Source: a virus
Length of the DNA: 64,000 bases
Direction: 5' to 3' (one strand)
Virus record (IMG/VR): IMGVR_UViG_3300012920_009134
Location: 1-64,000 of that record
Shown piece by piece: positions 27,880-43,717 of the stretch. Made by a program: the position numbers and the translations under genes. Position 1 is the first letter of the stretch; every line of letters starts with the position of its first letter. The notes beneath the pieces are model-generated. The model was not told where the DNA came from. It saw only the letters and a list, made by a program, of their open reading frames with translations, and did not search any database.

Positions 27880-29963
27880 GTAGAATAAAGATATTAGTTA
27901 CAGGACCTGCTCTTACGCGTTCTGGTTACGGTGTGCACACTCGACTTGTTCTTGAGTCGCTTAAACAAAGAGAGGAAATGTTTGATATCTACGTTAATCC
28001 TCTTCGGTGGGGCGCTACTGGTTGGTTGTTGGATGAAGATCCTTTTCTTGGATGGATTCACAAAAGAGTTGCAAAGTTTCAGCAGTTAAGTGAAGAGAAT
28101 CAAAAGTTTGACATCCATATTCATGTTGGTATTCCTAACGAATTTGAAAGAAAAGCACCCTATGCAGTTTGTGTTACTGCAGGCATTGAGGCAACCAAGG
28201 TATCTCCTTCATGGATAGAGAAATCATATAGTATCGATAAACTAATTGTTCCTAGTAACTTTGCAAAATGGGCATTTGAAAATACTTTCTATGAAGGTCA
28301 AAAATCTGACACAAAAGAACCTATGAGAGTTGGGTGTGGGGCACCTGTTGAAGTTGTTAGTTACCCTGTTCGTGAATATCACGGCAATAGTATCGATCTA
28401 GAACTTAAAGATGATTTTAATTTTCTTTGCGTCGCGCAATGGGGAATAAGAAAGAATCTAGAAAATACTATAAAGTGGTTCTTGCAAGAGTTTAAAGATG
28501 ATGAAGTTGGTTTGGTGATCAAGTCAAACATTGCTAAAAACTCAACACCCGACAGAGAAGAGTGTTTAGAAAGATTGAATGCAGTGTTTGATGAATTTAA
28601 ATCTTCTAAGTGTTCTTTATACTTGTTGCATGGCGAAATGTCAGATGAAGAGGTTGATGCAATTTATAAGCATCCAAAGATTAAGGCAATGGTATCTACA
28701 ACTCATGGTGAGGGTTTTGGATTGCCTCTTTTTGAGGCGGCATACAATGGACTTCCGGTTGTCGCACCTGGGTGGTCTGGACATATGGATTTTTTATATG
28801 CACCGGTAAAAGACAAGAAAACAAAAAAAGTTAAAAACAAACCTTTGTTTGCTAAGGTCGACTATTCTCTTAAGCACGTACAGAAAGACGCAGTTTGGAA
28901 AGACATACTTGTTAAAGATGCAATGTGGTGTTATCCATCTGAAAGAGATTTTAAGCAGAAGATTAGAAAAGTTTATTCTGATAATGGAATGTATAAGTCT
29001 TGGGCAAAAACACTGTCAGATCATCTAAGGTCTGAGTTGTCGCTATCGAATATTCTAGAAAAGATGCTACAAACTCTAATCCCAGAAAAGTGGTTGGTTA
29101 AACCAGAGTGCTTTTTTGTTAGCGATTTGTTTGTAGAAGATTATGTAGGCGGCGCTGAACTTAGTCTGGAAACGATTATTGACTCTGGCCCATACAAGAA
29201 AGTTGCTAAAGTTAGGTCTGCTGAACTTACAACTCAACTTATTGAAAACAACAAGGATGCCAAGTGGGTATTTGGGAATATTGCAAACCTGTCAAATGAA
29301 ATGTTGAAAAACCTTGCAGATATGGATTTTAAATACTCGTTCGTTGAATTTGATTACAAGTTTTGTAAGCATAGGAATCCAGAACTGTACAAGATGGTTG
29401 AGGGAACTACATGTGATTACAAAAATACTGAAAGAGGTCAAACTATGACAAACTTTGTAAATCGCGCAAGTTCTGTATTTTTTATGTCTGAAAAGCAAAA
29501 AACTATTCATTTAGAAAGTTTGCCAAATATTAGTAACGAAAACCTTTTTGTACTTTCATCGTTATTTAATGACGACTTTTTTAAGTTTATTGAAAATGTT
29601 AAAAACAAAACACCAAAAAAGAATGATAAGTGGGTTGTGTTAGGTTCGAGAAGTTGGGTCAAGGGACTCAATGAAACGGAATCCCACTGTAAAGAAAAGG
29701 GGTACGATTACGATGTTTTGTGGAACTTGCCATATGGACAGTTCTTGGAGAAGTTGGCAGAATCAAAAGGTCTGTGCTTCAAACCCTCTGGATTAGATAC
29801 TTGCCCAAGAATGGTAATAGAGGCAAAACTTCTAGGGTGTGAGTTAGATACAAATGACCTTGTACAGCATAGTGATGAATCGTGGTTTAAGGGATCTTAT
29901 GATGATATTGTAAAATATCTTAAAAGCAGACCTGCATTTTTTTGGGATAAGAGTTTTGCATGA
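27876..29963 (+). CDS. Two-domain glycosyltransferase (GT4-like fused to a second GT-B)
   Basis: SGYG, RKN, GEGFGLPLFE; then GGAELS…DTCPRMVIEAKLLG. Confidence 0.82.
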   Translation: MSRIKILVTGPALTRSGYGVHTRLVLESLKQREEMFDIYVNPLRWGATGWLLDEDPFLGWIHKRVAKFQQLSEENQKFDIHIHVGIPNEFERKAPYAVCVTAGIEATKVSPSWIEKSYSIDKLIVPSNFAKWAFENTFYEGQKSDTKEPMRVGCGAPVEVVSYPVREYHGNSIDLELKDDFNFLCVAQWGIRKNLENTIKWFLQEFKDDEVGLVIKSNIAKNSTPDREECLERLNAVFDEFKSSKCSLYLLHGEMSDEEVDAIYKHPKIKAMVSTTHGEGFGLPLFEAAYNGLPVVAPGWSGHMDFLYAPVKDKKTKKVKNKPLFAKVDYSLKHVQKDAVWKDILVKDAMWCYPSERDFKQKIRKVYSDNGMYKSWAKTLSDHLRSELSLSNILEKMLQTLIPEKWLVKPECFFVSDLFVEDYVGGAELSLETIIDSGPYKKVAKVRSAELTTQLIENNKDAKWVFGNIANLSNEMLKNLADMDFKYSFVEFDYKFCKHRNPELYKMVEGTTCDYKNTERGQTMTNFVNRASSVFFMSEKQKTIHLESLPNISNENLFVLSSLFNDDFFKFIENVKNKTPKKNDKWVVLGSRSWVKGLNETESHCKEKGYDYDVLWNLPYGQFLEKLAESKGLCFKPSGLDTCPRMVIEAKLLGCELDTNDLVQHSDESWFKGSYDDIVKYLKSRPAFFWDKSFA

Positions 29964-30703
29964 AAACACACTTTACTATAATCATTCCTGCTTATAACTG
30001 TGAGCGGTGGGTAGAGTGGAACCTAAATTCTGCTTTAAGGCAAGACTATGAGGATTCAAGATTCGATATTGTTTATGTTGATGACTGCTCTTCTGATAGC
30101 ACACGATCAGTAGTAGATAAAATACTAGAAACTTCTAGCAAGAAAATAAAAGTTATTTCAAATGTTAAAAACGAGAAAGCATTGTACAATCTGTATACCC
30201 ACATCCATTCGGCAAAAGATGGATCAGTTATTATAACTCTCGACGGTGATGATGCGCTCGCGGGAACTAACGTTTTAGAAAAATTAGATAAGTTATATCA
30301 AGATCCTGACTGCTGGATGACAGTAGGGTCTTACATGCAGAATGATAATTACAGTGTAGTCTCACCCGTAGTATCAGAAGGTTATTGGAAACAAAACATA
30401 AGAAAAATACCTTGGTCTTTTTCACACCTTAGAACGTTTCGCAAAGAACTGTTTTGTAAAATCAAAAAAGAAGATTTGCTAGACTTGGATGGCGGGTTTT
30501 ATAAATGCACTTTTGACCGCGCTATGATGTACCCGATGGTTGAGATGTCCGGTAAAGATAAGGTTCGCTTGATTGGAGAGGTGCTTTACATTTACAATAG
30601 GTTGAATCCAATATCTGTGGATAGAGTGCATAGACAAGATCAACTTAGAATAGAGCAGCAAATTTCAAATAAGCAACCCTATCAAAAAATAGAGAGTTTA
30701 TGA
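29960..30703 (+). CDS. Glycosyltransferase, GT2 family
   Basis: IIIPAYN, VDDCSSD, LDGDD. Confidence 0.88.
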   Translation: MKTHFTIIIPAYNCERWVEWNLNSALRQDYEDSRFDIVYVDDCSSDSTRSVVDKILETSSKKIKVISNVKNEKALYNLYTHIHSAKDGSVIITLDGDDALAGTNVLEKLDKLYQDPDCWMTVGSYMQNDNYSVVSPVVSEGYWKQNIRKIPWSFSHLRTFRKELFCKIKKEDLLDLDGGFYKCTFDRAMMYPMVEMSGKDKVRLIGEVLYIYNRLNPISVDRVHRQDQLRIEQQISNKQPYQKIESL

Positions 30704-31584
30704 ATATATTCTTAGATAATGTTAATTTAAACTCAACCAGTGGTCCTAACCATTTTGCCAAGAAACTAAAAAAATATATGGAACGTCAAGGTGATTCATT
30801 TATTCATGAACACCCCTTTGATGCACAACTTACTTTTATCCAAAGGGTCAATCTAATGGCACCAGTGTTTCAGAGATTGGATGGTATTTATTTTAATAGT
30901 GAGCAGGATTATAAGTCAATGAATGCTTCTATACTAAGAACTTACACAGAAGCAAAGGGAGTGATATTTCAGTCCGAGTTCAACAAGAGGTTGACGTTCA
31001 AATATTTTGGCGAGCACGATAACAGCGCAGTTATTCATAATGGTGCAGATCTGGAACTAATAAATCAAGTTAGACCCCTCAAAAACGACGTTCTAGAGCA
31101 GTTTGATAGTGTTTGGTGCTGTGCTTCATCTTGGCGTCCACACAAGCGTTTAAGGGGCAATATACGCTATTTTTTAGAGCACTCAAGCAGTCGGGATTGT
31201 TTGGTGGTGGCGGGACAAGTGCAAAAAGAAGATGTAATCAAGCATGAAAGAATATTTTACGTCGGCAATGTCGATATTAGCACTCTTTTTGCCATATATA
31301 AAAAAAGCAAATATTTAATTCATCTTGCATATCTAGATCACTGCCCGAATGTTGTAGTTGATGCAGTTGCTTGTGGTTGTCACGTAATATGTTCTTCGTC
31401 AGGTGGCACAAAAGAAGTTGCAGTTGGTGGCACCGTTATTGAAGAAGATGAGTGGGATCTTGAACCATTGCGACTTTACAATCCCCCTGAGATAGATTTT
31501 ACAAGAAAAAAACAAAACGATTTTAATACTAATATTGATATGACTTACGTTGCATCTCAATATCATAAGTTTATGGGAGAATAA
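30700..31584 (+). CDS. Glycosyltransferase, GT4-like
   Basis: IHNG, WRPHKR, DHCPNVVVDAVACG, SGGTKE. Confidence 0.82.
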   Translation: MNIFLDNVNLNSTSGPNHFAKKLKKYMERQGDSFIHEHPFDAQLTFIQRVNLMAPVFQRLDGIYFNSEQDYKSMNASILRTYTEAKGVIFQSEFNKRLTFKYFGEHDNSAVIHNGADLELINQVRPLKNDVLEQFDSVWCCASSWRPHKRLRGNIRYFLEHSSSRDCLVVAGQVQKEDVIKHERIFYVGNVDISTLFAIYKKSKYLIHLAYLDHCPNVVVDAVACGCHVICSSSGGTKEVAVGGTVIEEDEWDLEPLRLYNPPEIDFTRKKQNDFNTNIDMTYVASQYHKFMGE

Positions 31585-31585
31585 A

Positions 31586-32293
31586 ATGAAAACAGTTAGC
31601 GTAGTAAAGTATTTTGAAGAAATGGGGTATGACTGGAAAAGTGATAGAGACAGTATTGAACATATTTTAGAACTTACAAAAACCAGACCAAAAAACAATC
31701 CACCTGAGAAGTATGTGCCATCCGCTGGTGTTGAGCAAACTTATTTGGTAAAGGCAATAGCAGAAAATATTGGTGTCAAAAACTATTTTGAGATAGGTAC
31801 CGGACGAGGCACATCGTGCTATGCAGTCTCTCTTTTGCCTCACGTTGAAAACATTGTTACGGTAGATATAGTTTCGCACTTTACAAAAAAGAATGAGGCA
31901 ATCAATTCAAAACCAGTAGTTGTATCAAATGCAGACTTGTATGAAATGATTAAGTTTGAACAGAAAGATAAGATAAAATTTAAGCATGTATCTGAGTTGC
32001 CGTATATTGTAGAGGATTACGAACAGGAGATGGATCTGGCATTTGTAGATGGCAATCACACAGACTATAATGTTGTTATGCAAGATTATCTTAATTGTAA
32101 AAAAGTATTGAAACCTGGAGGAACCATTATATTTGATGACTACCATCCAGAAAAGTTTATTGTAAAACAGGTTGTTCATGATATTTTGGAGCAAGACAAG
32201 AATATTGAAGCAACGCTAGTTTGTGTGACTGGACACATATTTGAAACAGATAAGAAAAAGACTGATAGTGGAATGGTAGTTTTTAAAATATAG
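31586..32293 (+). CDS. Class I SAM-dependent (O-)methyltransferase
   Basis: FEIGTGRG, DLAFVDGNH, LKPGGTIIFDDY; start moved to ATG 31586 behind GGAG. Confidence 0.85.
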   Translation: MKTVSVVKYFEEMGYDWKSDRDSIEHILELTKTRPKNNPPEKYVPSAGVEQTYLVKAIAENIGVKNYFEIGTGRGTSCYAVSLLPHVENIVTVDIVSHFTKKNEAINSKPVVVSNADLYEMIKFEQKDKIKFKHVSELPYIVEDYEQEMDLAFVDGNHTDYNVVMQDYLNCKKVLKPGGTIIFDDYHPEKFIVKQVVHDILEQDKNIEATLVCVTGHIFETDKKKTDSGMVVFKI

Positions 32294-32306
32294 GAGAATG
32301 TGACTT

Positions 32307-33158
32307 ATGGGTTTAGGTGGATATTTGACATGGACAGCAGCAGTTAGAGAGATCTCTGAAAATAAGTTGGATGATGATACCAAGATTGTTCCTTGTGAGA
32401 TGCATGGAGGTCGAGTCACAAAGATCGTAAAAAGTCCAATATTTGAAAACAACCCTTATGTTTACAACGAAAATACGGATAGTGAAAAGAAGAAATTTCT
32501 TTTACCAATGAATCTCCATGAAACAAACTATTGCAAAAAAGACACTCCCACACGAGCACACCAGAGATATGATAAACACATAATAGGACAAATCTGTGAG
32601 TATTATGGTATAGACAATCCAGATTTAAGATGCGAATTATATTTTACCGACCAAGAAAAATCAAAAGTCAGCAAAATACTCAAGCGTTTACCAAAAAGAT
32701 TTATTGTTATAGAACCACACTCAAAGCAAAACTACACACCAAATCGAAGGTACCCATTTGAAAAGTGGCAAAAAGTAGTAAATTCCTTAAAGGATGACAT
32801 AGACTTTGTACAGATAGGTCGCCCTGGGCAAAGGGTTTTGGACAATGTGCACTCTTTACTCGGAGAAGTTACTTTTAGAGAGGCAGCAATAGTTATACAG
32901 AACTCTGATTTATTTGTTAGCACCGAAGGCGGATTGGGTCATGCCGCAAATGCAGTAAGAAAAAAATCTATTATTGTATTGACAGGATACCAAGGATATG
33001 ATATGGTTGCTTATCCTGACAATGTTAATGTAGATATCTCTACCCATGGTCCTTGTGGATTGAAAGTAGAGTGTACTGAGTGCAAGGAAGATGCTGATAA
33101 CCATGATGAGTCTGAAATTATCTACAACATTAGAAAGTGTTTGGAGTTGTATAAATGA
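32307..33158 (+). CDS. GT9 (heptosyltransferase-like) glycosyltransferase
   Basis: GLGG N-terminus, RRYPFEKW, FVQIG, EGGLGHAANA. Confidence 0.8.
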   Translation: MGLGGYLTWTAAVREISENKLDDDTKIVPCEMHGGRVTKIVKSPIFENNPYVYNENTDSEKKKFLLPMNLHETNYCKKDTPTRAHQRYDKHIIGQICEYYGIDNPDLRCELYFTDQEKSKVSKILKRLPKRFIVIEPHSKQNYTPNRRYPFEKWQKVVNSLKDDIDFVQIGRPGQRVLDNVHSLLGEVTFREAAIVIQNSDLFVSTEGGLGHAANAVRKKSIIVLTGYQGYDMVAYPDNVNVDISTHGPCGLKVECTECKEDADNHDESEIIYNIRKCLELYK

Positions 33159-34027
33159 GTAATAAAAAGATAATCGTGTTGGCGGCAGATCATAACGGCG
33201 TCGAAAGAAAGGCAGAGTTAAAAAAGTTTCTTTCAAGTGAGGGGTATTTTTGCATTGATCTAGGTCCTTATGTATCAAGCGAAAGCGTTGATTATGTTGA
33301 TTATGCAGATCAACTTTCAACTATTGTGTCTTCAGGCGAAGCGCCAAGAGGTATACTTATTTGTGGCACTGGAGTTGGCATGAGTATTGTAGCAAACCGA
33401 CATAAAGATGTCAGAGCAGTTCTTGCGCACAACTTTATGACAGCGAAGAAGTCACGAGAACATAACGATTCGAATGTTTTGTGTTTGGGTGCTTGGATAT
33501 CTTCTCAGGAAGACACAAATCAAATGACTCTTGATTGGGTAAATGAGTCATGGGGTGAAGGTAGACACGTTAAGAGAGTTGGAAAGATAGATAGACACAG
33601 TGGTATAGTTCTTACTAACGGCGTTTTCGATGTCTTGCATAAAGGTCACATAGAGTTGTTGAAGTTTGCAAAATCACAGGGGCAAAAGTTGGTGGTTGCA
33701 ATAGATTCTGATATCAGGGTAAGATCTATCAAAGGAGAGTCTAGACCTATCAATTCCGAAGAAGATAGAAAGAGGTTACTTGAGGCGATTGAGTTTGTCG
33801 ACGAGGTTTTGATTTTTAACAGCGAGTCGGACCTAAAACAACTATATGAAGAAATTGTCCCATCCTGTTTGGTTAAAGGCGGCGAGTGGACGGCAGATGA
33901 AGTTAGGGAGAGGGATGGTGTTAGTGATCAAATAGATATTAAAATATATCCCATATATGGAAATTACTCTACAACCAACACTTTGAGAAAAATTAAGAAC
34001 ATTGAGACAACTGAAAAAATACAATAG
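33155..34027 (+). CDS. Fusion: RpiB/LacAB sugar-phosphate isomerase + HldC/RfaE-II-like nucleotidyltransferase
   Basis: ADHNG, DYVDY, ICGTGVGM, HNDSNVL, GRH..R; then TNGVFDVLHKGH, KGESRPIN, KGG, YSTT. Confidence 0.88.
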   Translation: MSNKKIIVLAADHNGVERKAELKKFLSSEGYFCIDLGPYVSSESVDYVDYADQLSTIVSSGEAPRGILICGTGVGMSIVANRHKDVRAVLAHNFMTAKKSREHNDSNVLCLGAWISSQEDTNQMTLDWVNESWGEGRHVKRVGKIDRHSGIVLTNGVFDVLHKGHIELLKFAKSQGQKLVVAIDSDIRVRSIKGESRPINSEEDRKRLLEAIEFVDEVLIFNSESDLKQLYEEIVPSCLVKGGEWTADEVRERDGVSDQIDIKIYPIYGNYSTTNTLRKIKNIETTEKIQ

Positions 34028-34877
34028 AAAAGTTTTATTGATAGGGGATACCATAGTAGATAAGCACGTATATTCTACTGTCTCCGGTTTATCTTTAGAG
34101 TCTCCAACCGTTAAGTGCAATTTCAACAAAGAAGTCATACAACTTGGAGGGGCAGCAAACGTTGCCAAGCACATGAGTCACCTCTGTAGTGAAGTTACCT
34201 TTGTAACTTCGATGAATCCTTCCTATAATGTGCCTGGAGTAAACACAATAAATATAGAAAGTGACACATACAATACGAAAACAAGACATTGGATATCTCG
34301 TGGAGATCACACTTACAAGTACCTACAGATAAACAACACCAATCAGAATGATTTGAAATATAGTTTACAGGATCTTGTAATCGAAGAATACGATGTCCTT
34401 GCTATATCTGACTATAGGTGTGGGTTGGTGACGGATAATATTGTTGAAGAAATACTAAAAAATAAGTTTAGCAAAAAGAAATATGCTGCGTCACAAGTAT
34501 CTTCCAAAGAAAACAATTATGATAGATACCAAACATTCGACTGTTTTGTTATGAACAAATCTGAAGCAATGAGTTACACCAAGTCAGAGTTTCCTAATTT
34601 TAAGTCTTTTGCAGATCTTAAAGCGAAAACAGTGTATGTAACAATGGGTGCAGAAGGTTGTACACTGTATAACGCATCTGGATTTCACCACTTTCAGGGT
34701 AAGATTGCATCTGTGAGCAATACCATAGGGGCAGGAGATGCTTTCTACGCAGCGTTGTTATCTTCTGGTGGAGATGTTAACTTTGCAAACAGATGGGCAT
34801 CCTACTATGTATCTAGAAATATAGATGATGAGGTGACCTTAAGAGGGATGTTTGAATATGAAGAAGCAGTGCGTTGA
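34002..34877 (+). CDS. PfkB/ribokinase-family kinase, HldA/RfaE-I-like
   Basis: IGDTIVD, LSLESP, GGAANVA, ISDY, NTIGAGD. Confidence 0.85.
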   Translation: MRQLKKYNRKVLLIGDTIVDKHVYSTVSGLSLESPTVKCNFNKEVIQLGGAANVAKHMSHLCSEVTFVTSMNPSYNVPGVNTINIESDTYNTKTRHWISRGDHTYKYLQINNTNQNDLKYSLQDLVIEEYDVLAISDYRCGLVTDNIVEEILKNKFSKKKYAASQVSSKENNYDRYQTFDCFVMNKSEAMSYTKSEFPNFKSFADLKAKTVYVTMGAEGCTLYNASGFHHFQGKIASVSNTIGAGDAFYAALLSSGGDVNFANRWASYYVSRNIDDEVTLRGMFEYEEAVR

Positions 34878-35547
34878 TGCGAACAAGAAAATAAAAGAAC
34901 TAGGATTAGTAAAACTTACTTGGGGAAATGTCTCATTGTTGTCCGAATGCGGCACTTTAGTTTACATCAAACCATCCGGAGTGGCATTTGAAACAATGGT
35001 TGAGGATGATATATCCGTTGTTAATCTAAAGACCGGCGAACTTTTGGAAGGAAAGAAGCAGTCTGTAGACACAAACATACACCTTGAAATATACAGAGAA
35101 TTTGATGACGTCAAGTCGATAATACATACTCACTCAAAGTATGCAACGTCACACGCTCAAGCTCAAACACCGATAAGGTGCTTGGGAACAACACATGCAG
35201 ATTATTTTGATGGCGACATTCCTGTAACTAGAAATTTGACAAAGAATGAAATTGCAACAAACTATGAAATGAATATAGGAAAGTGCGTTGTAGAGTGGTT
35301 TCAGGAGAACAAGAGTCTTCCGACACGAAAAGGCGCAGTTTTGTTGCCTAGTCATGGAGTCTTGACGTTTGGCAAGTCTGCAGATCAAGCACTAGAAAAT
35401 GCTATAGTATTAGAAGAAGTGGCCGAAATGAATATATTATCCAACATGTTGAATAGTTCTATTGCCATCGGTCGCCATAAGCAACAACTTTTTAAAAAAC
35501 ACTATGATAGAAAAAATGGAGTTAACAAATATTATGGTCAAGGATAA
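34858..35547 (+). CDS. araD: L-ribulose-5-phosphate 4-epimerase (class II aldolase fold)
   Basis: TWGNVS, IKPSGV, HTHS, GTTHADYF, HG, C-terminal HY.RK.G…YYGQ. Confidence 0.88.
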   Translation: MKKQCVDANKKIKELGLVKLTWGNVSLLSECGTLVYIKPSGVAFETMVEDDISVVNLKTGELLEGKKQSVDTNIHLEIYREFDDVKSIIHTHSKYATSHAQAQTPIRCLGTTHADYFDGDIPVTRNLTKNEIATNYEMNIGKCVVEWFQENKSLPTRKGAVLLPSHGVLTFGKSADQALENAIVLEEVAEMNILSNMLNSSIAIGRHKQQLFKKHYDRKNGVNKYYGQG

Positions 35548-35953
35548 TGAGTTTGGAATAAAGAAACTACCAGAAGTACAAAAACCTATTTTACACAAAG
35601 ATAAATATTGGGGATATATAACCTCTGTTTATGCAGATGATGATTTTACATTAAAAAAGATATTCATGAAAAAGGGAAGTCAAAGTAGTATGGAGTATCA
35701 CTGTAAAAAAGACGAATATTACTACATCTTTTCTGGTAAACTTAAGGTAGGTTTTAGGATAGGTCGTGCAAAAAATACTTCTCTGATCATGGAAGAGGGG
35801 GATGTTATACATCTAAAACCTGGTCTTATGCATATGAGAATGGCATTAGAAGACACAATTATTATAGAATGGTCTAATAAGGATGATGATTCTGACTCGC
35901 ACATCGTAGAAGATGGGAAAACATACATACACATAGATGATGAGGAAATATGA
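35534..35953 (+). CDS. Cupin (sugar isomerase-like)
   Basis: KYWG, SMEYHCKKDE, PGLMH. Confidence 0.75.
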   Translation: MVKDNEFGIKKLPEVQKPILHKDKYWGYITSVYADDDFTLKKIFMKKGSQSSMEYHCKKDEYYYIFSGKLKVGFRIGRAKNTSLIMEEGDVIHLKPGLMHMRMALEDTIIIEWSNKDDDSDSHIVEDGKTYIHIDDEEI

Positions 35954-36627
35954 GAAAACTATACATTGATACAGCAAATCTAAAAGATATAAAAAAGATA
36001 AACTCTTTGGGAGTAATTCAAGGAGTGACCACAAACCCCAGTCTTATCTCTAAAGAACCAAAGCAAAATTTTGATGCTCTTATTGAGGATTTGGCAAGGT
36101 TTTGCGACAAGGCAAAACTGTCTTTAAGCGTCGAGGTATTTGCCTCAGAACCGGATGAAATGCTAAACCAAGCGCGTGATATCCATGCTTCTTTGACTAA
36201 GATAATCGATCCATCTTTGTTGAGGATAAAGATTCCTGTTGGGTTTGAAGAGTTGAGGGTAATAAAAGAACTGTCTGGTGATGGTATAAGCGTAAACTGC
36301 ACCTGCTGTTTTACCGAACAGCAGATGCAACTTGCAGCAATGAGTGGAGCAAAGTATGTATCTCTATTTTACAGTAGATTAAGAGATACATCGGGTAACC
36401 CGTCAGAAGTGTTAAGAAGAACTAGACAGTTTATCGATGATAATAATCTCGACTGTGAAATCATCGCCGGTAGCATAAGGTCTCAGGGAGATGTATCGGG
36501 TGCCTGGGCGAATGGGTGCGATATAGTAACTTGTAGTACAGCGATTATTAAGAGTATGACTAGTCACCCCAAGACAGACTCTTCTGTAGAAGGGTTTTTA
36601 AAAGATTTTAACAACTGGATTAAGTGA
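35950..36627 (+). CDS. talC: Transaldolase, short TalC/FSA family
   Basis: IDTA, GVTTNPSL, Schiff-base IKIP, NCT, GSIR; Glu (VEV) and Phe (SLF) suggest transaldolase rather than FSA. Confidence 0.88.
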   Translation: MRKLYIDTANLKDIKKINSLGVIQGVTTNPSLISKEPKQNFDALIEDLARFCDKAKLSLSVEVFASEPDEMLNQARDIHASLTKIIDPSLLRIKIPVGFEELRVIKELSGDGISVNCTCCFTEQQMQLAAMSGAKYVSLFYSRLRDTSGNPSEVLRRTRQFIDDNNLDCEIIAGSIRSQGDVSGAWANGCDIVTCSTAIIKSMTSHPKTDSSVEGFLKDFNNWIK

Positions 36628-36628
36628 T

Positions 36629-36955
36629 ATGATTTATTGCTTTGATATTGATGGTACCGTGTGCACACCCTACAGCGGTGACTATGAAAAATCTCAACCA
36701 ATAAAAGATAGAATTGAAAAGGTCAATCAACTCTATGATGAGGGCAATACCATATTCATGCTAACTGCTAGAGGTATGGGTAGGACTGACAACGATCAGA
36801 TTGGTGCTTATAAATGTATGTATACGTTCACCGAAAACCAGCTAGACAAGTGGGGTGTTAAGTATCATAAGTTGTTTTTGGGCAAACCTAACGCAGATCT
36901 CTACATAGATGATAAGGGAATGAAAGATTTAGATTTCTTTGGTGGCGGTGAATGA
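36629..36955 (+). CDS. Small cap-less HAD phosphatase
   Basis: FDIDGT, TARG, GKP, YIDDK. Confidence 0.85.
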   Translation: MIYCFDIDGTVCTPYSGDYEKSQPIKDRIEKVNQLYDEGNTIFMLTARGMGRTDNDQIGAYKCMYTFTENQLDKWGVKYHKLFLGKPNADLYIDDKGMKDLDFFGGGE

Positions 36956-37857
36956 AGGTATACATCAATAGACAACCAAAACACGGACCTTGGGGCGGAG
37001 GTGCTAAGACAGTTAATAAACTTGTAGAACTACTACTACACAAGGGTCATACTGTTGTCTACGAACTTCAAGAAGGTATTGATGTTATCTTTTGTATGGA
37101 TCCTCGACCAAATCATAGAGGCGAATGGTATCAACATTTTTTAGATTATAGGTTTGAAAATAAAAACACTAAAATAGTGCAGCGAGTAGGGGACGTTGGT
37201 ACTCACTCAAAACCACATCTAACTGATATGGTAAGGCAGACTCTACCACATTCAGATCATTTTATATTTCCTAGTAAATGGGCCAAAGAGTGGATAGGTT
37301 TCGAATCAGAAAACTTCGATATAATCAATAATGCCCCAATGCAAATATTTTATGAAAACAGAAAACTAGACCTAAAACTATCAGAACAAGTTAGTGTTGT
37401 TACGCACCATTGGTCTACCAACCCTAAAAAGGGATTCGATATATATCAAAAATTTGAAGAATGGTGCAAGGATCAAAATATTAGTTTTCACTATATTGGA
37501 CAAGTCCCACCAGGAGTTGTTTTTGAAAACTACACAAAACCAATATCAGCAGAACAACTTTCTGTAGTTTTACCAAAACATGACATATATTTAACCGCTT
37601 CACAAGAAGAAGCGGGTGCCAACCATGTCCTGGAAGCACTTGCAGTAGGACTTCCGGTAGTTTACAGAGATACCGGAGGCAGCATAAATAACTATTGCCA
37701 TCCTTATGGAGAAGAATATTCTACTTTTGATGGTATGGTTGATAAAGTGCAGAAGGTTATAGGGCATTATGATACTTACAAAAGTGAAGTATTAAAGTAT
37801 GTCGACAACAATGATAACGTTATTGAGAGATATTGTGACATTATAGAGAAAATCTAA
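36952..37857 (+). CDS. Glycosyltransferase, GT4-like
   Basis: GPWGGG, KKG, EAGANHVLEALAVGLP. Confidence 0.8.
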   Translation: MKVYINRQPKHGPWGGGAKTVNKLVELLLHKGHTVVYELQEGIDVIFCMDPRPNHRGEWYQHFLDYRFENKNTKIVQRVGDVGTHSKPHLTDMVRQTLPHSDHFIFPSKWAKEWIGFESENFDIINNAPMQIFYENRKLDLKLSEQVSVVTHHWSTNPKKGFDIYQKFEEWCKDQNISFHYIGQVPPGVVFENYTKPISAEQLSVVLPKHDIYLTASQEEAGANHVLEALAVGLPVVYRDTGGSINNYCHPYGEEYSTFDGMVDKVQKVIGHYDTYKSEVLKYVDNNDNVIERYCDIIEKI

Positions 37858-37858
37858 T

Positions 37859-38557
37859 ATGAAAGTTAATATAAGCATAGACGATGTAAGTCCGCACCCT
37901 TTTTCATCCACAAGAGTATTGGAGAGGTGTGGAGAATTAATAGAAGTATTTCCAGATATTAAGTTTTCTTTGTTTATTCCCCTTGCTTATTGGAGAACAA
38001 TGAAATCGGGAACAACCACAGCAAAACCAATGTACATTTCTGAGTTTCCAGAGTTCTGCGAAACTATACTTGAACTTCCAGAACAAAACTACGAGATAGG
38101 TTTTCATGGGTATTATCATGGAATCCCCGGTAAAAGTGATAATGATGAGTTTCAGTACTTGAATTATGATGACGCACTTGTTAAAATAGATCTGATGTTC
38201 GATGAGGTGGATAAGGCAGGTTTGCAGAATAAGTTTAGAAAAATATTTAGACCACCAGCGTGGCGGTTAAGTCCAGACTCATTTAAAGCACTGTCTGACA
38301 GGGGGTTTGAAGTGTTTGCATTAACTGATCTGCCTTATACAAGAGAAGTGTATGCCGGAGAAGAGGACAATCATCCATGTACTTATTCCAATCAATTTCC
38401 TCCATTTAAAGATCTACACGTAGAAGATAAAGCAGGTATTGTGTATCATGCTTGTGAGTGGGATAAGAACTTTCTTACTATAGAAAAGTCTCACGATTTA
38501 ACAAACTTTCTTGAAGACAAAGAGAAAACGTTCGTATTTCTAAAGGGATTGTTGTAA
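37859..38557 (+). CDS. Polysaccharide deacetylase (CE4/NodB-like)
   Basis: SIDDV, HGYYH, FRPPAW, late H. Confidence 0.8.
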   Translation: MKVNISIDDVSPHPFSSTRVLERCGELIEVFPDIKFSLFIPLAYWRTMKSGTTTAKPMYISEFPEFCETILELPEQNYEIGFHGYYHGIPGKSDNDEFQYLNYDDALVKIDLMFDEVDKAGLQNKFRKIFRPPAWRLSPDSFKALSDRGFEVFALTDLPYTREVYAGEEDNHPCTYSNQFPPFKDLHVEDKAGIVYHACEWDKNFLTIEKSHDLTNFLEDKEKTFVFLKGLL

Positions 38558-39261
38558 TGGGAATGACAGATGGGTATTTGATTCCAAAAATGCCTCAATA
38601 TATAGCAAAAAAGATTAACAGTCTAGATAGTGGTTCAAGAATCGCATGGTTAGGTCAAATTCATCCTGATATGAATGACACATGTGATATGTACAAGGCA
38701 ATAATGAATCTTGTTGAGGTTGAAGATTTAAGGTGTGACTTTTACGATCTGAATAATGATGACAGCATTGCTGAAAACTCTTATGTTTGGGATGTGAATA
38801 CTGAATGGGATTTTACAGGTTACGATATTATTGTTGCAGTGAGGATATTTTATGCCTGTAACTCTGCTAGTCAGTTAATAAGGAACATTAAAAAAATGGT
38901 ATCTACGGAACAAAACATAGTAGGTGATTTGATGTCCGGTAACACCGGTGCTCACATAACAAATCCAGAATCTGGTATTTATCGCCAGTATTACTCTACG
39001 ATGGTAGAGGATTGTGAAGTTTTTATGAAACCAGCAAACAGCAAGGCAATCATTCCAATGCTTCCAAAGATGTGGATTGATCATGATATCAAAAATCCTG
39101 TCGGCAAATTCGGTTTCGGTGTAAAGCAAAACCACAAAGATCAAGTTTTGACAGAAGAGATGCTTGCAGAAAGCGGAATTAAAGTTACACCAATATCAGT
39201 TTTTAGAGAACCGACAAAATATAGAATATATTCAATATGTGAGTTTACAAATGACGTTTAA
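38557..39261 (+). CDS. Hypothetical protein, possibly a degenerate methyltransferase fold
   Basis: IAWLG, FYDL, WDVN, YDIIV pattern only. Confidence 0.35.
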   Translation: MGMTDGYLIPKMPQYIAKKINSLDSGSRIAWLGQIHPDMNDTCDMYKAIMNLVEVEDLRCDFYDLNNDDSIAENSYVWDVNTEWDFTGYDIIVAVRIFYACNSASQLIRNIKKMVSTEQNIVGDLMSGNTGAHITNPESGIYRQYYSTMVEDCEVFMKPANSKAIIPMLPKMWIDHDIKNPVGKFGFGVKQNHKDQVLTEEMLAESGIKVTPISVFREPTKYRIYSICEFTNDV

Positions 39262-40279
39262 CTTTTTGCTTAGAGAAATGACACACCTTAGATATTTTAT
39301 CCCGATTGTTGAAGAGGGTAATGCAAGAGGTGTTAAATCTAACTTCTATATCACGCATTCTGGAAAGTATAACTGCCCAACAATCCACCGTGATTTTCTT
39401 AACAAAATCAAAAAAAAATATAACATCGGAACTCTTGAAGAGTATGATCTAGAGTCTATCGAGGGATTTTGGTTTGCAAACGAATCATCTGGTTTAGATA
39501 TAACAAAAAAAGTTGCAACGCAAAAAAGCGCGAAAGTAATCATCACAACATATCAAACAGATTTTACACAGTGCTATCCCAAATATTCAGCAATAGCAGA
39601 TTACATTATGATGCCAAGTGAGAAAGTTGCTCAGTACTATAACCTTGAAGGTGAAAAAAATATTTATGTTGGTATACCAAAGTATGATATAGAAATTGAC
39701 TCAAGTAAGGTGTTGGAAAAGTATGGACTTGATCTCAACAGAAAGAAAGTTCTACTTATGTGGCCAAAGTCAAGAGATCTGGCAAAGTTTCCTATTGATA
39801 TAATAAGTAACTTCCAACAGTTAGGGTGGCAAGTTTTAGTAAAGGCAAGAGGAAAGGATCCAATATCTAAAAATACGGCAAACTACTTATTGTCTGGTGG
39901 ACATAAGTTTTTTTACGATGGTTGGTTTCCACACACTTCGCAAGAACTTTTGGAAGTGAGTGATTTAGTCGTAAACTGTGGATCTACAACGATTGAAGAA
40001 TGTGTTATGCACGAAGTTCCTTTAATCAATTTCGATATAAAACCGGAAGTACGTCATGGCAAAAAACAAAAACACAGAGTGACTCATGATTATTTGTACA
40101 ACTATAAATTCTGTATAAACATTCCATCGCTTAATAAAAACTTTAACACCGCAATGTTAAACGCCATGATTCAATCGCTACTACAGAAAGATCTAAAATC
40201 AGAGTTTAAAAAGTGTAAGCAAGAATGGTTGTATGATCATAAAAATACTTGTAAAAACTTATTAGATATGATACTATAG
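39251..40279 (+). CDS. GT-B transferase, TagB/TagF- or KpsS-like; candidate CMP-ulosonate transferase
   Basis: GIPKYD, SDLVV..GSTTIEE…P; adjacent to neuA/neuB. Confidence 0.55.
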   Translation: MTFNFLLREMTHLRYFIPIVEEGNARGVKSNFYITHSGKYNCPTIHRDFLNKIKKKYNIGTLEEYDLESIEGFWFANESSGLDITKKVATQKSAKVIITTYQTDFTQCYPKYSAIADYIMMPSEKVAQYYNLEGEKNIYVGIPKYDIEIDSSKVLEKYGLDLNRKKVLLMWPKSRDLAKFPIDIISNFQQLGWQVLVKARGKDPISKNTANYLLSGGHKFFYDGWFPHTSQELLEVSDLVVNCGSTTIEECVMHEVPLINFDIKPEVRHGKKQKHRVTHDYLYNYKFCINIPSLNKNFNTAMLNAMIQSLLQKDLKSEFKKCKQEWLYDHKNTCKNLLDMIL

Positions 40280-40283
40280 TGGC

Positions 40284-40835
40284 ATGAAAGTTGTTGCTAT
40301 TATACCTGCTCGTGGTGGTTCTAAAAGACTTCCAAGAAAAAATATATATCCTATCTGGGGAAAACCAATGCTCTATTGGTCTGTCTTGGCAGCAAAGCAA
40401 AGTAGATACATTGATGAAGTGTGGGTAACCACAGAAGATAAAGAAATAAAGAAAGTTGCTCTAGAATGCGGTGCCCGAGTTCACGATAGGGATCCGATAC
40501 TGTCTGGTGACAAGGTATATAAGATGGAAGCAATAAGAAGTTGTTTCGGTGATATTGATAACGGAGAGGATATAGTTATTTCATTACAGGCAAACTCTCC
40601 CGAAATGACCGGCGAAATACTTGACAGTGCCATTGATTCTTTTATACAAAACGATAGACACGAGTTATTGAGCGTTTCGCCAAACCTTATGCAGAATGCT
40701 GCTTTCAGAATTATGAAATCTTGGTATGTCTTTCAGAAAGATCTAAGTACCAAGTGCGGTGTGTTTGTTTGTGATATACACGACGTTCATACAAAGGAGG
40801 ATATTGAGATGATAGAAGAGAGGACCAACCGATGA
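40284..40835 (+). CDS. neuA: Acylneuraminate (ulosonate) cytidylyltransferase
   Basis: IIPARGGSKRLPRKN, QANSP, DVHT..D. Confidence 0.85.
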   Translation: MKVVAIIPARGGSKRLPRKNIYPIWGKPMLYWSVLAAKQSRYIDEVWVTTEDKEIKKVALECGARVHDRDPILSGDKVYKMEAIRSCFGDIDNGEDIVISLQANSPEMTGEILDSAIDSFIQNDRHELLSVSPNLMQNAAFRIMKSWYVFQKDLSTKCGVFVCDIHDVHTKEDIEMIEERTNR

Positions 40836-41545
40836 AGATTATTGTAGATCTTTGTAACCAACATTTTGGAAGTCTAGAAGAGTTAAAAAGAATGTCTTTG
40901 AATGCTTTTCTTTCTGGCGCTGATGCTGTAAAAATTCAACTTTTAGATTCTGAAAAACTATTAGGCACAACAGAAAAAAAGTATAGAGATATTTGCTTTC
41001 AAGATGCTTACGAGTTGTCAAAATATTGTGATGACATTGGCATTGAGTTTATGGCATCTGTATTCGATGCAGAGAGATTTGAGTGGTTGGAAGATCTTGG
41101 AGTTCAAATGCACAAGATAGCTAGCAGAACATCAAGGCGCGATAAGGCACTGTCCGAACTTATACTTTCAGATGGAAAACCCACAATCATATCAACAGGT
41201 ATGCATGATTTTGCAGAGTTTCCATTTGGACACTCTGATCAGATTGAATATTTGTTCTGTGTATCCAAATATCCTACATATCTAGATGATGAAAAACTAG
41301 CAAAAATGCCGCATTTTAAGCGCCCTGGTTACTCTGGGTACAGTGACCATACGATTGGCATCGCGGCAGCGTTACGCGCCCATTCTCGCGGCGCTACGAT
41401 ACTAGAAAAGCATTTTTCTAATAACCTTGGTGCCCAAACAAGACTGGAAGGCGGGCACATAGGGTCTTTTGATCAGGACTCATTAAGAAACTTTGTTAAT
41501 ATCGTAAAACAATTTGAGATTATGGAGAAGAAAAGTGAGTATTAG
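40832..41545 (+). CDS. neuB: NeuB-family PEP-dependent ulosonate synthase lacking the C-terminal SAF domain
   Basis: NQH.G, GADAVK.Q, KIAS, ISTGM, CVSKYP, GYSDHT, LEKHF. Confidence 0.85.
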   Translation: MKIIVDLCNQHFGSLEELKRMSLNAFLSGADAVKIQLLDSEKLLGTTEKKYRDICFQDAYELSKYCDDIGIEFMASVFDAERFEWLEDLGVQMHKIASRTSRRDKALSELILSDGKPTIISTGMHDFAEFPFGHSDQIEYLFCVSKYPTYLDDEKLAKMPHFKRPGYSGYSDHTIGIAAALRAHSRGATILEKHFSNNLGAQTRLEGGHIGSFDQDSLRNFVNIVKQFEIMEKKSEY

Positions 41546-42161
41546 GAATCCTGATGTATCGGTCATCATCACAAACTATAACTACGAAAAGTATATTGCT
41601 CGCGCTGTCAGGAGTTGTTTGAACCAATCTCATGTTAATCATGAAGTTATAGTTGTTGATGATTGTAGCACCGACGATTCTGTAAAGACCTTAAATCCAT
41701 TCAAGGAACAGGTTAAAATTATTTCTACTGGGACTAATGGTGGCGTTGCTGTTGCTGCAAATATGGGAGTTAGAGAAGCGAGAGGTCAGTTTTTTATTCG
41801 TGTTGATGCAGACGATTACGTTAACTCTGATATGTGTTATATGATGAAAACATACCTTGAGGCAAATCACGATGCCTTTTGTGTGTCATGTGATTATCTT
41901 ATGGTAGATAACTTTGAAAACACACTAGAAAGGAAGTATGCAGAAGTAGAAAATATATCATGCGGCATCATGTACCGAAGAGATCCTTTCCTCGCAGTTG
42001 GCGGGTACAACAACAAAATGAGACACAGAGAGGAAGAGGAACTTCGAAAAAGATTGGGACAAGACTATAAAATACATCATTTGAAGATTCCGTTTTATAG
42101 ATATAGGATGCATAACACAAACAAAACAAAAGAACCAGAATACAAAACGTGGGAGATATGA
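41535..42161 (+). CDS. Glycosyltransferase, GT2 family
   Basis: SVIITNYN, VDDCSTD, VDADD. Confidence 0.88.
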   Translation: MSIRNPDVSVIITNYNYEKYIARAVRSCLNQSHVNHEVIVVDDCSTDDSVKTLNPFKEQVKIISTGTNGGVAVAANMGVREARGQFFIRVDADDYVNSDMCYMMKTYLEANHDAFCVSCDYLMVDNFENTLERKYAEVENISCGIMYRRDPFLAVGGYNNKMRHREEEELRKRLGQDYKIHHLKIPFYRYRMHNTNKTKEPEYKTWEI

Positions 42162-42164
42162 AAG

Positions 42165-42851
42165 ATGAGTAAAAAGATTTTTATTACAGGGTGTGCAAAA
42201 TCAGGCACCACATTGTTACTGAGAATGTGTTATGCATTCAAGGACACGGAAGTTTTATACAGAGAGGGGTTTGACGGACACGAACTACCATTCAATGATT
42301 TCGTTGATCATAAAAGTGAAAACAAGTTTATTATTGGAAAGAGACACCCACCAGCACTTTTGAGTAACGTGTTGATTCCTGAATTCGCTGAACAGGCAGC
42401 AACCGTTATTTCACAAGACATTGCGATTATAAATGTTGTTAGGGATGGACGAGATGTAGTGCTCTCTGATGGCAACTATGTAAAACCAAGAAGATGGATC
42501 GATACTGTGAAACAGAGAGATAAAGAAGTGTTCGGTGCTTTGATCGATTTAGAAGTCAGGTATGAAGATTTAGTTAGAAATCCAGAGAAGATTCAAAAAC
42601 AAATGGAAGAGTTGTTTGGATTGGAGTCGGAACATAGTTTTGCAAAATATCCAGAGTACGTAGAAGATTGGGTCTACGAGTGGAATGTTTCTGTATTGGG
42701 TCGTGCAGGCAAGGGAAATGATTCTGATTATGGTAAACGAAAGTTGAGTGACAAAGGTGTTGGCAAAGACCCAGAAGCATATAAGGACATATGTTCAGAA
42801 CTGGAACTTCCTGAGTTTGAAAAATGTTTGAAGGAGTTGAGATACATATGA
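42165..42851 (+). CDS. PAPS-dependent sulfotransferase
   Basis: 5'-PSB GCAKSGTT, 3'-PB VRDGRDVVLS, RYEDLV..P. Confidence 0.82.
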   Translation: MSKKIFITGCAKSGTTLLLRMCYAFKDTEVLYREGFDGHELPFNDFVDHKSENKFIIGKRHPPALLSNVLIPEFAEQAATVISQDIAIINVVRDGRDVVLSDGNYVKPRRWIDTVKQRDKEVFGALIDLEVRYEDLVRNPEKIQKQMEELFGLESEHSFAKYPEYVEDWVYEWNVSVLGRAGKGNDSDYGKRKLSDKGVGKDPEAYKDICSELELPEFEKCLKELRYI

Positions 42852-43717
42852 GAGCATTGGTTACAGGTCATGAAGGATACATTGGCGGTAATTTTGTAAA
42901 AGAATGGGTGAAGAGAGGTCATGAGTATCTTGGATATGATATGAAGAATAATCATGAGTTTGATCTCTCAAAAAGAATAAAAGAACTTTACATTAATCAC
43001 AAAAACAAACCTATTGATGTTGTGATACATTTTGCTGCTATACCGAGAGTTGCTTTTAGTGTAGAACAACCAGTTTATGTTATGAATAACAATATAAACT
43101 CGACAACTAGAGTGTTGAATTGGGCAAAAAAAGAAAATATCCCAGTTGTTTATAGTTCGTCTTCTTCTGTTGTCGGTAACGGAACTGGTCCCGCTAGTCC
43201 ATACGCGCTGTCTAAGTATGTTGGAGAAATGGAGACCATACTGTATAATCAGTTATATGGTCTTAAGACTGTAGCGTTGAGATATTTTAATGTCTATTCT
43301 TACGACCAACAGGCAGACAGTGAGTATGCCACTGTTGTATGCAATTGGAAAAAGTTCATTACAGAGGGTCGGACTCCTTTTATTACCGGTGATGGAGAGC
43401 AGAGGAGAGACATGACTCATGTTGACGATATCGTTTCAGCAAATATTTTCTGCGCAGAGAACATTGATAATGATGAACTTTGGGGGCACTGGTATGATAT
43501 TGGATCTGGTGAAAACATTTCTTTAAATGAATTGAAAGAAATTGTGTTACAATATTTCCCAGAGCAAAGATTTGACTATATAGACCCCAGACCAGGAGAT
43601 GTAATGTATACTGAGGCAGATTTGTCTAAGTTCAAAGCACATGGGTGGGAAAGCAAGGTACGACTTCAAGAAGGTCTAAATCTTGTTTATAAGACATTAA
43701 AAGAGGAGTTGGGATAA
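42848..43717 (+). CDS. NAD-dependent nucleotide-sugar epimerase/dehydratase
   Basis: TGHEGYIG, SSSSV, YALSK, LRYFNVY, GDGEQRRD. Confidence 0.9.
   Translation: MRALVTGHEGYIGGNFVKEWVKRGHEYLGYDMKNNHEFDLSKRIKELYINHKNKPIDVVIHFAAIPRVAFSVEQPVYVMNNNINSTTRVLNWAKKENIPVVYSSSSSVVGNGTGPASPYALSKYVGEMETILYNQLYGLKTVALRYFNVYSYDQQADSEYATVVCNWKKFITEGRTPFITGDGEQRRDMTHVDDIVSANIFCAENIDNDELWGHWYDIGSGENISLNELKEIVLQYFPEQRFDYIDPRPGDVMYTEADLSKFKAHGWESKVRLQEGLNLVYKTLKEELG

Follow-up and report, generated by a model that had tools for sequence, protein, structure and literature searches.

Gene content of the locus

The first 64,000 bases of IMGVR_UViG_3300012920_009134 (99,731 bases in all), the record of an uncultured marine phage, make up the stretch of DNA analysed here, hereafter the window, in which nearly all genes lie on the + strand. 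Near its middle, a set of genes appears to encode a route to a nucleotide-activated sugar of the ADP-heptose type that does without the isomerase GmhA. An initial annotation had placed seven genes at 32307-36955 on the + strand and proposed that together they make an unusual nucleotide-activated octose or heptose. All seven are present at these coordinates and their domain assignments hold:

32307..33158, + strand: GT9-like glycosyltransferase, 283 aa (PF01075)
33155..34027, + strand: RpiB::HldC-like fusion (LacAB_rpiB and CTP_transf_like)
34002..34877, + strand: HldA-like sugar kinase of the PfkB family (PF00294; TIGR02198 rfaE domain I)
34852..35547, + strand: AraD-type L-ribulose-5-phosphate 4-epimerase (NF006047; 1JDI)
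35462..35953, + strand: small cupin resembling phosphomannose isomerase (PMI; weak Pfam and NCBIfam PMI matches; motifs)
35950..36627, + strand: small transaldolase of the TalC/Bacillus type (PF00923, TAL_FSA; 3R8R)
36629..36955, + strand: cap-less HAD phosphatase, 108 aa, of the AfhF/1XPJ family (TIGR01689; 9IQW)

The genes are tightly packed, with 4 nt overlaps at 33155/33158, 35950/35953 and 36952/36955 and a 1 nt gap at 36627/36629. The remaining overlaps are longer, their length being set by the TTG start chosen; the true start of the cupin gene is probably the ATG at 35516.

A conserved unit of six genes

Viral contigs were scanned with the fusion protein and an AraD alignment. The order RpiB::nucleotidyltransferase, kinase, AraD, cupin, transaldolase, HAD is identical in 15 other distinct IMG/VR contigs at 30–68 % identity, two of which end early, before the HAD or before the transaldolase gene. 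Two looser copies are found in metagenome-assembled genomes (MAGs) of tiny cells: in a Woesearchaeota contig the order is retained, the place of the cupin being taken only by a divergent candidate, and in a Taylorbacteria contig the fusion, AraD, transaldolase, cupin and kinase are present but rearranged, and no match to the HAD was found. Such an arrangement is far beyond chance, and the gene set proposed at the outset is thus both real and conserved.

The conserved unit, however, comprises six genes (fusion to HAD) and not seven. The GT9 gene, initially taken as a partner in the pathway, is not conserved beside the cassette in relatives and was ruled out as a fixed member: the upstream open reading frames (ORFs) of eight relatives (196–289 aa) have no Pfam match, and the one that was compared with the window GT9 shows no similarity to it. 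GT9-like domains occur in the relatives only as the C-terminus of 581–590-aa transferases downstream, in two cases. The window protein itself matches PF01075 at 38 bits (cut-off 22) over residues 103–224 only, its C-terminal half (profile positions 79–208), and scores about 19 bits against the WaaC, WaaF and WaaQ heptosyltransferase models of NCBIfam, whose cut-offs are 135–467.

The transaldolase has a fixed place in the colinear loci and is the only TAL_FSA gene in each of the two tiny-cell genomes. In line with the initial annotation, it is thus an integral member of the cassette and not a stray pentose-phosphate gene.

Marine metagenomes are very rich in proteins of the fusion family (1,766 at E <= 0.001, many of them 286 aa). 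A DNA search of 50,697 phage records recovered no relative of the cassette from cultured phages, and the only AraD matches in that collection are bacterial contamination. Literature searches returned nothing relevant on AraD together with transaldolase in glycan synthesis. The cassette is common to marine phages and tiny cells (Candidate Phyla Radiation and DPANN), and undescribed.

Absence of GmhA and the cupin as a candidate substitute

To our knowledge, every described nucleotide-heptose route starts with GmhA. A Pfam search of the whole record gave no SIS_2 or SIS match. SIS_2 was likewise absent from three cassette-bearing relatives rated by CheckV as 100 %, 94 % and 100 % complete (200.8, 170.9 and 284.4 kb), from the Woesearchaeota and Taylorbacteria MAGs, and from 14 further viral records of HldC-like loci, all fragments. 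The lack of GmhA, initially noted for the window, thus extends to the full record and to its relatives.

A broader set of 67 viral loci, found through the HldC-like domain, was searched with E. coli GmhA, E. coli GmhB and the cassette proteins. By tblastn GmhA was found in 0 of the 67, and a cupin homologue lies within 6 kb of the nucleotidyltransferase gene in 53. Twenty-four of the loci read kinase, nucleotidyltransferase, cupin, GmhB, without GmhA. Where the contig holds the whole gene, their GmhB is 32–39 % identical to that of E. coli over 138–198 residues, and a short-chain dehydrogenase/reductase (SDR) gene follows the nucleotidyltransferase in those that were checked. Ten records among the 24 are rated 8–28 % complete by CheckV at 28–99 kb; the viruses concerned may be very large. 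In cellular loci, GmhA and the cupin likewise never occur together. Pairing of the cupin with HldA-like, HldC-like and GmhB-like genes, with no GmhA, is the pattern expected if the cupin had displaced GmhA, and it gives comparative support to what had been offered as an alternative in the initial annotation, namely that the cupin replaces GmhA. The 24 loci appear to be a simpler, GmhA-free ADP-heptose operon.

The cupin of the window is 31–35 % identical to nine cupins from these 24 loci, 35 % identical to a ‘cysteine dioxygenase’ of phage S-SSM7 and 33 % identical to the cupin of phage Bellamy. It scores 20.9 bits against PF01050 (cut-off 23.6), its match to TIGR01479 is weak, and its conserved motifs (KYWG, SSMEYH..K.E, G.MHMR and DSHIVEDG) form a pattern that we take to be like that of type II phosphomannose isomerase. 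The predicted fold (pLDDT confidence score 72.8) returned only generic cupins in a Foldseek search against the PDB (oxalate decarboxylase, the CapF cupin domain, KdgF and D-lyxose isomerase), which says nothing on substrate. Exhaustive profile searches recovered one NCBI protein in which PfkB, CTP_transf_like and this cupin are fused and one Logan protein in which the cupin is fused to TAL_FSA; longer fused cupin forms were absent from the word-indexed database. A PMI-type isomerase acting on sedoheptulose-7-phosphate would give the same manno product as GmhA, and the cassette cupin may be such an enzyme, isomerizing a ketose phosphate to a manno-configured aldose phosphate in the place of GmhA. 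Cupins of this kind are regarded, in a paper on ‘MPI’ genes of cyanophages, as carbon-metabolism enzymes acting on fructose-6-phosphate and mannose-6-phosphate (PMC9602691). No literature was found linking such cupins to heptose, and nothing relevant on a cupin as sedoheptulose-7-phosphate isomerase.

Kinase, nucleotidyltransferase and phosphatase

The fusion (33155-34027) scores 151.7 bits against LacAB_rpiB and 58.8 bits against CTP_transf_like, with an RpiB-type isomerase at residues ~1–148 and an HldC-like nucleotidyltransferase at ~150–285. The best named match of the latter half is rfaE domain II (126.8 bits, below the cut-off of 181.5). In the PDB the fusion is best matched by 3HE8 (RpiB) and 5X9Q (nucleotidyltransferase), the second presumably an HldC. 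The kinase scores 54 bits against PF00294 and 93 bits against TIGR02198 rfaE domain I (E = 1.8e-26; cut-off 345), and its best PDB match is the HldA of B. cenocepacia, 4E84 (E = 1e-10). By this likeness, it would phosphorylate the anomeric O1.

The phosphatase is not of the type of GmhB or of the lincosamide enzyme LmbK but, by its relatives, of AfhF type. It carries FDIDGT (DxDxT) at residues 5–10, matches TIGR01689 below cut-off (E = 1.6e-11) and has 9IQW (E = 4e-12) and 1XPJ as its best PDB matches. The 9IQW sequence in turn matches a 128-aa protein of the RB69-like phage LF82-1 (L192:2471-2857; E = 9e-87), and the cassette HAD is 37–42 % identical to the proteins of RB69-like phages. In LF82-1 the phosphatase gene adjoins an arabinose-5-phosphate isomerase gene and a 561-aa gene, taken to be an AfhE-type nucleotidyltransferase-kinase. 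AfhF removes the 5-phosphate of arabinofuranose-1,5-bisphosphate en route to UDP-arabinose (PMC13326640). The cassette HAD would similarly remove the terminal phosphate from a sugar bisphosphate.

With E. coli GmhB as query, no match was found in the cassette loci, though GmhB was found in 24 other viral loci. Among the viral HldC-like loci, an AfhF-like HAD is present in 7 and GmhB in 24, and no locus has both, the pattern expected if an AfhF-like HAD had displaced GmhB in an otherwise HldA/HldC-type pathway. A homologue of the HAD occurs in 392 phage records, often annotated ‘phosphoheptose isomerase’, as in P-TIM68 (L150:8751-9089) and in S-SSM7, whose protein is 51 % identical to that of the cassette (L149:11082-11417). 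This name is wrong, because the protein is a DxDxT HAD; the name ‘cysteine dioxygenase’ given to the cyanophage cupin looks wrong as well.

RpiB, AraD and transaldolase

The isomerase half of the fusion scores 154.9 bits against NF004051 (cut-off 135) and falls just under the cut-off of the equivalog TIGR01120 (130.5 against 138.65). In 14 of 14 divergent cassette copies and in 120 of 120 database fusions, tryptophan stands in place of the phosphate-binding arginine (E. coli R110, M. tuberculosis R113). From the phosphate-binding set Arg110/Arg133/Arg137 (E. coli numbering) only Arg110, presumably a phosphate-binding residue in the E. coli enzyme, is lost. Position 40 is Lys or Ser among cassette copies, often Lys. 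In pentose-specific RpiB, the phosphate is bound by Arg113, which also covers part of the pocket; LacAB lacks Arg113 and uses Arg39, so that its pocket is longer and tagatose-6-phosphate is oriented differently (PMC3755991). Position 110 aligns with Glu in LacA and Met in LacB, and position 40 with Arg in LacB. The changes in the cassette RpiB thus seem to fall at the same two positions where LacAB departs from pentose RpiB.

In both tiny-cell MAGs, a housekeeping set of Tkt, Rpe and RpiB lies on a separate contig, with Rpe adjoining RpiB and no transaldolase there, and position 110 of this housekeeping RpiB is Arg. The RpiB of the cassette is therefore an additional copy. A second, altered RpiB, fused to a nucleotidyltransferase in cells that already have an RpiB, argues for a pathway-specific role.

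AraD scores 258.4 bits against NF006047 (cut-off 257), is below the cut-off of the equivalog TIGR00760, and aligns over its full length with E. coli AraD, 1JDI (E = 7e-54). The residues that we take to be zinc ligands (D76, H95, H97 and H171), catalytic (D120 and Y229) and pocket residues (N28, K42, S44, G45 and S74), following the work on 1JDI, are kept and are invariant in 14 cassette copies. Replacement of S75 by V, I or T (Val in the window) is the only group-specific change when compared with four bona fide AraDs. Because the active site is otherwise canonical, the substrate pair is taken as L-ribulose-5-phosphate and D-xylulose-5-phosphate, and L-ribulose-5-phosphate is probably on the pathway.

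The transaldolase scores 141.6 bits against PF00923, with the B. subtilis transaldolase 3R8R as best PDB match (E = 6e-38). Aligned to 3R8R, 1VPX and 1WX0, it shows the motifs KIP, SvEV and S-L-F; its active site is of the transaldolase type (Schiff-base Lys, Glu and Phe) and not of the fructose-6-phosphate aldolase type (Gln and Tyr), on the residue roles we assume to separate the two. Group-specific changes, SPF(V/L)GR to SLFY(S/N)R and NVTL to NCTC, lie beside the active-site Phe and Arg.

On a Rhizobium lusitanum plasmid (L194:3101-5499), a class II aldolase-family gene, a divergent RpiB-like gene and a sugar kinase gene are found together, adjoining a nucleoside hydrolase and an ABC transporter. 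The RpiB-like product has Gln at position 110 and no GRHxxR motif. These three genes may be related, as a catabolic version, to the trio of AraD, RpiB and kinase.

Proposed pathway

Comparison of the loci shows what appears to be a core of PMI-like cupin (for GmhA), HldA-like kinase, AfhF-type HAD (for GmhB) and HldC-like nucleotidyltransferase; the extended form adds a dedicated RpiB whose phosphate site is remodelled, together with an AraD-type 4-epimerase and a transaldolase. The cassette would accordingly be a GmhA-free route of the ADP-heptose type to an ADP-activated C7 or C8 sugar, a reading to which we assign a probability of roughly 0.6. The three added enzymes would build a non-standard ketose phosphate for the core.

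Within this general reading, a specific chain to an L-series octose can tentatively be drawn, at somewhat less than even odds. If the cupin is the last isomerase before the kinase, as in the simpler loci, the transaldolase would build its ketose phosphate, and the aldose acceptor of the transaldolase would be made by RpiB from a ketose supplied by AraD. In order, AraD would convert D-xylulose-5-phosphate to L-ribulose-5-phosphate; the RpiB domain would convert this to L-arabinose-5-phosphate with LacAB stereochemistry; the transaldolase would add a C3 unit from fructose-6-phosphate or sedoheptulose-7-phosphate, yielding an octulose-8-phosphate; the cupin would isomerize this to a manno-configured aldo-octose-8-phosphate; the kinase would phosphorylate O1; the HAD would take off the 8-phosphate; and the nucleotidyltransferase would give an ADP-octose, the eight-carbon homologue of L-glycero-D-manno-heptose, for use by the soluble glycosyltransferases of the surrounding 19-kb island.

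This order agrees with the stereochemistry of the intermediates. Transaldolase products are always 3S,4R. L-Ribulose-5-phosphate (3S,4S) is the lower homologue of tagatose-6-phosphate, and L-arabinose-5-phosphate, the product of a LacAB-like isomerization, is the homologue of galactose-6-phosphate and shares the 2R hydroxyl with the usual transaldolase acceptors. RpiBs favour right-handed C2/C3 hydroxyls (PMC4783025), by which RpiB should be unable to act after the transaldolase, where a PMI-type cupin could. On established stereochemistry, the octulose-8-phosphate isomerized in the manner of PMI would be a D-manno octose, with C6 configured as in L-glycero-D-manno-heptose. Transaldolases that make octulose-8-phosphate from ribose-5-phosphate are known, in LmbR and in T. 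brucei (PMC5854111). The L-series octose would be the product of the only chain in which every enzyme is used once and the cupin keeps its core role. The product might then be ADP-L-erythro-beta-D-manno-octose, a new nucleotide sugar made by a new route and decorating phage or host surfaces, although this exact identity is more doubtful than not. The octose chain of the initial annotation thus gains a stereochemical fit at each step and a remodelled RpiB site; the size of the product, C5, C7 or C8, is something we infer.

Several points weigh against this interpretation. Every substrate assignment in it is read from sequence comparison. The RpiB domain scores 154.9 bits as RpiB against 70–76 bits as LacA or LacB and retains all RpiB catalytic residues (the DH, CGTG, EHN and GRHxxR motifs), and position 40 in the window is Ser and not Lys. 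Known RpiBs favour right-handed C2/C3 hydroxyls, which are absent in L-ribulose-5-phosphate (PMC4783025), so that this step would need a change of RpiB specificity at which R110W alone hints. The only characterized relative of the HAD acts on a pentofuranose 1,5-bisphosphate. The fusions of PfkB, nucleotidyltransferase and cupin and of cupin and transaldolase are all singletons, and the link of the GT9 gene to the cassette is weak. That the transaldolase is the only one in the tiny cells cuts both ways, since it could simply be their housekeeping enzyme. Finally, the count of 0 GmhA in 67 loci comes from tblastn with the E. coli protein, a search that highly divergent GmhAs might escape, although the outcome of the Pfam SIS_2 searches is the same; many of the viral records, moreover, are fragments.

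Alternative explanations

The cassette could make ordinary ADP-D-glycero-D-manno-heptose or a simple epimer, the cupin isomerizing sedoheptulose-7-phosphate of the host, the kinase, HAD and nucleotidyltransferase finishing the synthesis, and transaldolase, RpiB and AraD balancing the pentose-phosphate pool. The loci of kinase, nucleotidyltransferase, cupin and GmhB, and those of cyanophages with nucleotidyltransferase, kinase, HAD and cupin, need only sedoheptulose-7-phosphate, on which a PMI-type isomerase gives the manno product of GmhA; a nearby SDR has HldD as its best named match; and the sole transaldolase of the tiny cells may be a housekeeping enzyme. Such a scheme has no role for AraD, however, and leaves unaccounted for the second, dedicated RpiB, with its altered phosphate site, in cells that already have Tkt, Rpe and RpiB. 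Tkt alone makes sedoheptulose-7-phosphate, which transaldolase would drain as readily, and in the loci seen none of the three extra genes is ever found singly. On balance, an ordinary heptose is unlikely.

Quite unlikely is a nucleotide-activated pentofuranose made by the logic of the Afh pathway, in which AraD would give L-ribulose-5-phosphate, the cupin or RpiB would give L-ribose-5-phosphate or L-arabinose-5-phosphate, the kinase would form the 1,5-bisphosphate, the HAD would take off its 5-phosphate, the nucleotidyltransferase would activate the sugar, and the transaldolase would be a feeder. PMI-type enzymes convert L-ribulose to L-ribose, which counts in its favour, as does a canonical AraD. 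The closest solved relative of the HAD is, in addition, the AfhF-type phosphatase of RB69-like phages, acting on Araf-1,5-bisphosphate (PMC13326640). The kinase and nucleotidyltransferase, however, are of the HldA/HldC type, which serves a pyranose heptose, rather than of the AfhE type; in 24 loci a cupin of this family is paired with a true GmhB; and the fusion of cupin and transaldolase is on record, if as a singleton. The second RpiB, and a transaldolase that is both a fixed member and the only one in the tiny cells, would go unexplained.

An octose of the D-series, made as in lincosamide synthesis, would use AraD in a side role or not at all: RpiB would give D-ribose-5-phosphate, the transaldolase the 8-phosphate of D-glycero-D-altro-octulose, and the cupin D-erythro-D-manno-octose-8-phosphate for subsequent activation. 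This is very unlikely in spite of the LmbR precedent (PMC5854111), the canonical catalytic residues of RpiB and the adjacency of the cupin and transaldolase genes, with one fusion of both. AraD is strictly conserved with its active site intact and yet would be unexplained, the phosphate-binding Arg is lost in every copy, which speaks against plain binding of ribose-5-phosphate, and the tiny cells already have a housekeeping RpiB.

A scheme of AraD and cupin alone, with RpiB and transaldolase as mere feeders, was down-weighted after the extra RpiB copy and the sole transaldolase were found in tiny cells. A DNA sugar was set aside, as the record has no thymidylate-synthase-like gene and genes for GT2, GT4, methyltransferase, sulfotransferase and NeuB are found in the island.

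Comparison with known systems

The canonical ADP-heptose pathway shares with the cassette the sequence of ketose-phosphate isomerase, anomeric kinase, terminal phosphatase and adenylyl-type nucleotidyltransferase. The kinase and nucleotidyltransferase appear to be homologous to HldA and HldC, and a GT9-like gene and an HldD-like SDR gene lie in the island. The cassette differs in its PMI-like cupin for GmhA and AfhF-type HAD for GmhB, in the fusion of the nucleotidyltransferase to an RpiB-type isomerase and in the added AraD and transaldolase; its kinase and nucleotidyltransferase are also far below the curated HldE cut-offs.

The lincosamide GDP-octose pathway employs the transaldolase LmbR, the isomerase LmbN, the kinase LmbP, the phosphatase LmbK and the nucleotidyltransferase LmbO. 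It has no AraD, RpiB or cupin and belongs to Streptomyces secondary metabolism, not to a phage glycan island. Its enzyme families, which we take to be a GHMP kinase, a GDP-type NTP_transferase, an SIS-type isomerase and a GmhB-type phosphatase, are unlike those of the cassette. What is common to both is a ketose phosphate built by transaldolase and then passed to isomerase, kinase, phosphatase and nucleotidyltransferase (PMC5854111 for LmbR).

The phage Afh pathway to UDP-D-arabinofuranose (arabinose-5-phosphate isomerase, the AfhE kinase/nucleotidyltransferase and AfhF) has a homologous phosphatase and the same logic of isomerase, kinase, phosphatase and nucleotidyltransferase, and is likewise phage-encoded (PMC13326640). 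It uses an SIS isomerase where the cassette has a cupin, an APH-like in place of a PfkB kinase and a MurU-like in place of an HldC-like nucleotidyltransferase. Unlike the context in Afh phages, no 5-hydroxy- or hydroxymethyl-cytosine synthase was found in the record, and the wealth of GT2 and GT4 genes in the island points to a glycan and not to DNA modification.

The cyanomyovirus ‘LPS’ (lipopolysaccharide) module (T4-GC 304-308; S-SSM7, P-TIM68, P-SSM2 and others) has a homologous nucleotidyltransferase, kinase, HAD (51 %) and cupin (35 %), the last two annotated as ‘phosphoheptose isomerase’ and ‘cysteine dioxygenase’. This cluster lacks RpiB, AraD and transaldolase. No functional study of the module was found in the literature. 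In Synechococcus phage Bellamy (L170:5411-11341), a class II aldolase-family protein, an AfhF-like HAD, a GHMP kinase, a cupin, an NTP_transferase and two SDRs are encoded together. By family assignment this appears to be a third version of the module, with the same logic and with a kinase and nucleotidyltransferase of the GDP-heptose type.

Implications

Nucleotide-heptoses are building blocks of surface glycans, and ADP-heptose is an innate-immune signal. If the proposed route is correct, a cupin-first pathway, widespread and unannotated, would place heptose-type sugars in many phages and ultra-small cells where annotation sees none, and the names ‘phosphoheptose isomerase’ and ‘cysteine dioxygenase’ would be incorrect for hundreds of phage genes. 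If the octose is correct, there would in addition be a new sugar and new specificities, of RpiB for an L-pentulose and of a PMI-type cupin for C7/C8 ketoses. The island has no export genes and may therefore glycosylate virion proteins in the cytoplasm; if so, it would offer a tractable model of how phages in the ocean encode glycans.

The surrounding island and other features of the window

The seven genes lie in a glycan island of about 19 kb (26611-45518) that also encodes several GT4 and GT2 transferases, a methyltransferase, a DUF2334 protein, a NeuB homologue, a CMP-sugar synthetase, a sulfotransferase, an SDR, a nucleotide-sugar dehydrogenase, a small HIGH-motif nucleotidyltransferase and an adenylylsulfate (APS) kinase. 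The SDR gene is as follows:

42824..43717, + strand: SDR nucleotide-sugar epimerase or dehydratase (best named match HldD-like TIGR02197)

Its TIGR02197 score is 98.8 bits (cut-off 274.6). About half of the related loci have SDR genes close to the cassette, at 22–33 % identity to that of the window, and by this measure the SDR seems only loosely tied to the cassette.

Upstream, a block at 24866-29963 encodes a 223-aa protein with a sub-threshold match (21.9 bits) to an anthrax lethal-factor-type metalloprotease domain, a PD-(D/E)XK nuclease and GT4 transferases of 422 aa and 695 aa; it is kept upstream of the cassette in eight relatives at 34–61 % identity. Downstream, at 40284-41545, a CMP-sugar synthetase that looks truncated (183 aa, best named match PseF/KdsB) and a synthase of the NeuB family (237 aa) suggest a second, nonulosonic-acid arm within the island. 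The sulfotransferase, SDR, nucleotide-sugar dehydrogenase (288 aa, without the usual C-terminal domain), HIGH-motif nucleotidyltransferase (132 aa, like nicotinamide mononucleotide adenylyltransferase) and APS kinase at 42165-45518 are a possible phage sulfation module; a recognizable ATP sulfurylase is absent from that region.

CheckV rates the 99.7-kb record as 12 % complete, against 94–100 % for cassette-bearing relatives of 171–284 kb; either the figure is unreliable, as it looks, or the genome of this phage is of unusual size. The window encodes a T4-type baseplate wedge protein, whose closest cultured relatives are from Flavobacterium and Microcystis myophages at ~30 % identity; by these relatives, the host may be a marine member of the Bacteroidota. 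At 10557-11561 lies a gene for a short, adenylosuccinate-synthetase-like protein of 334 aa (PurA 288 bits and PurZ 129 bits, both below cut-off; PHROGs phrog_1211). Two giant + strand ORFs, 16004-21706 (1,900 aa) and 50433-58973 (2,846 aa), probably encode virion or tail-fibre proteins.

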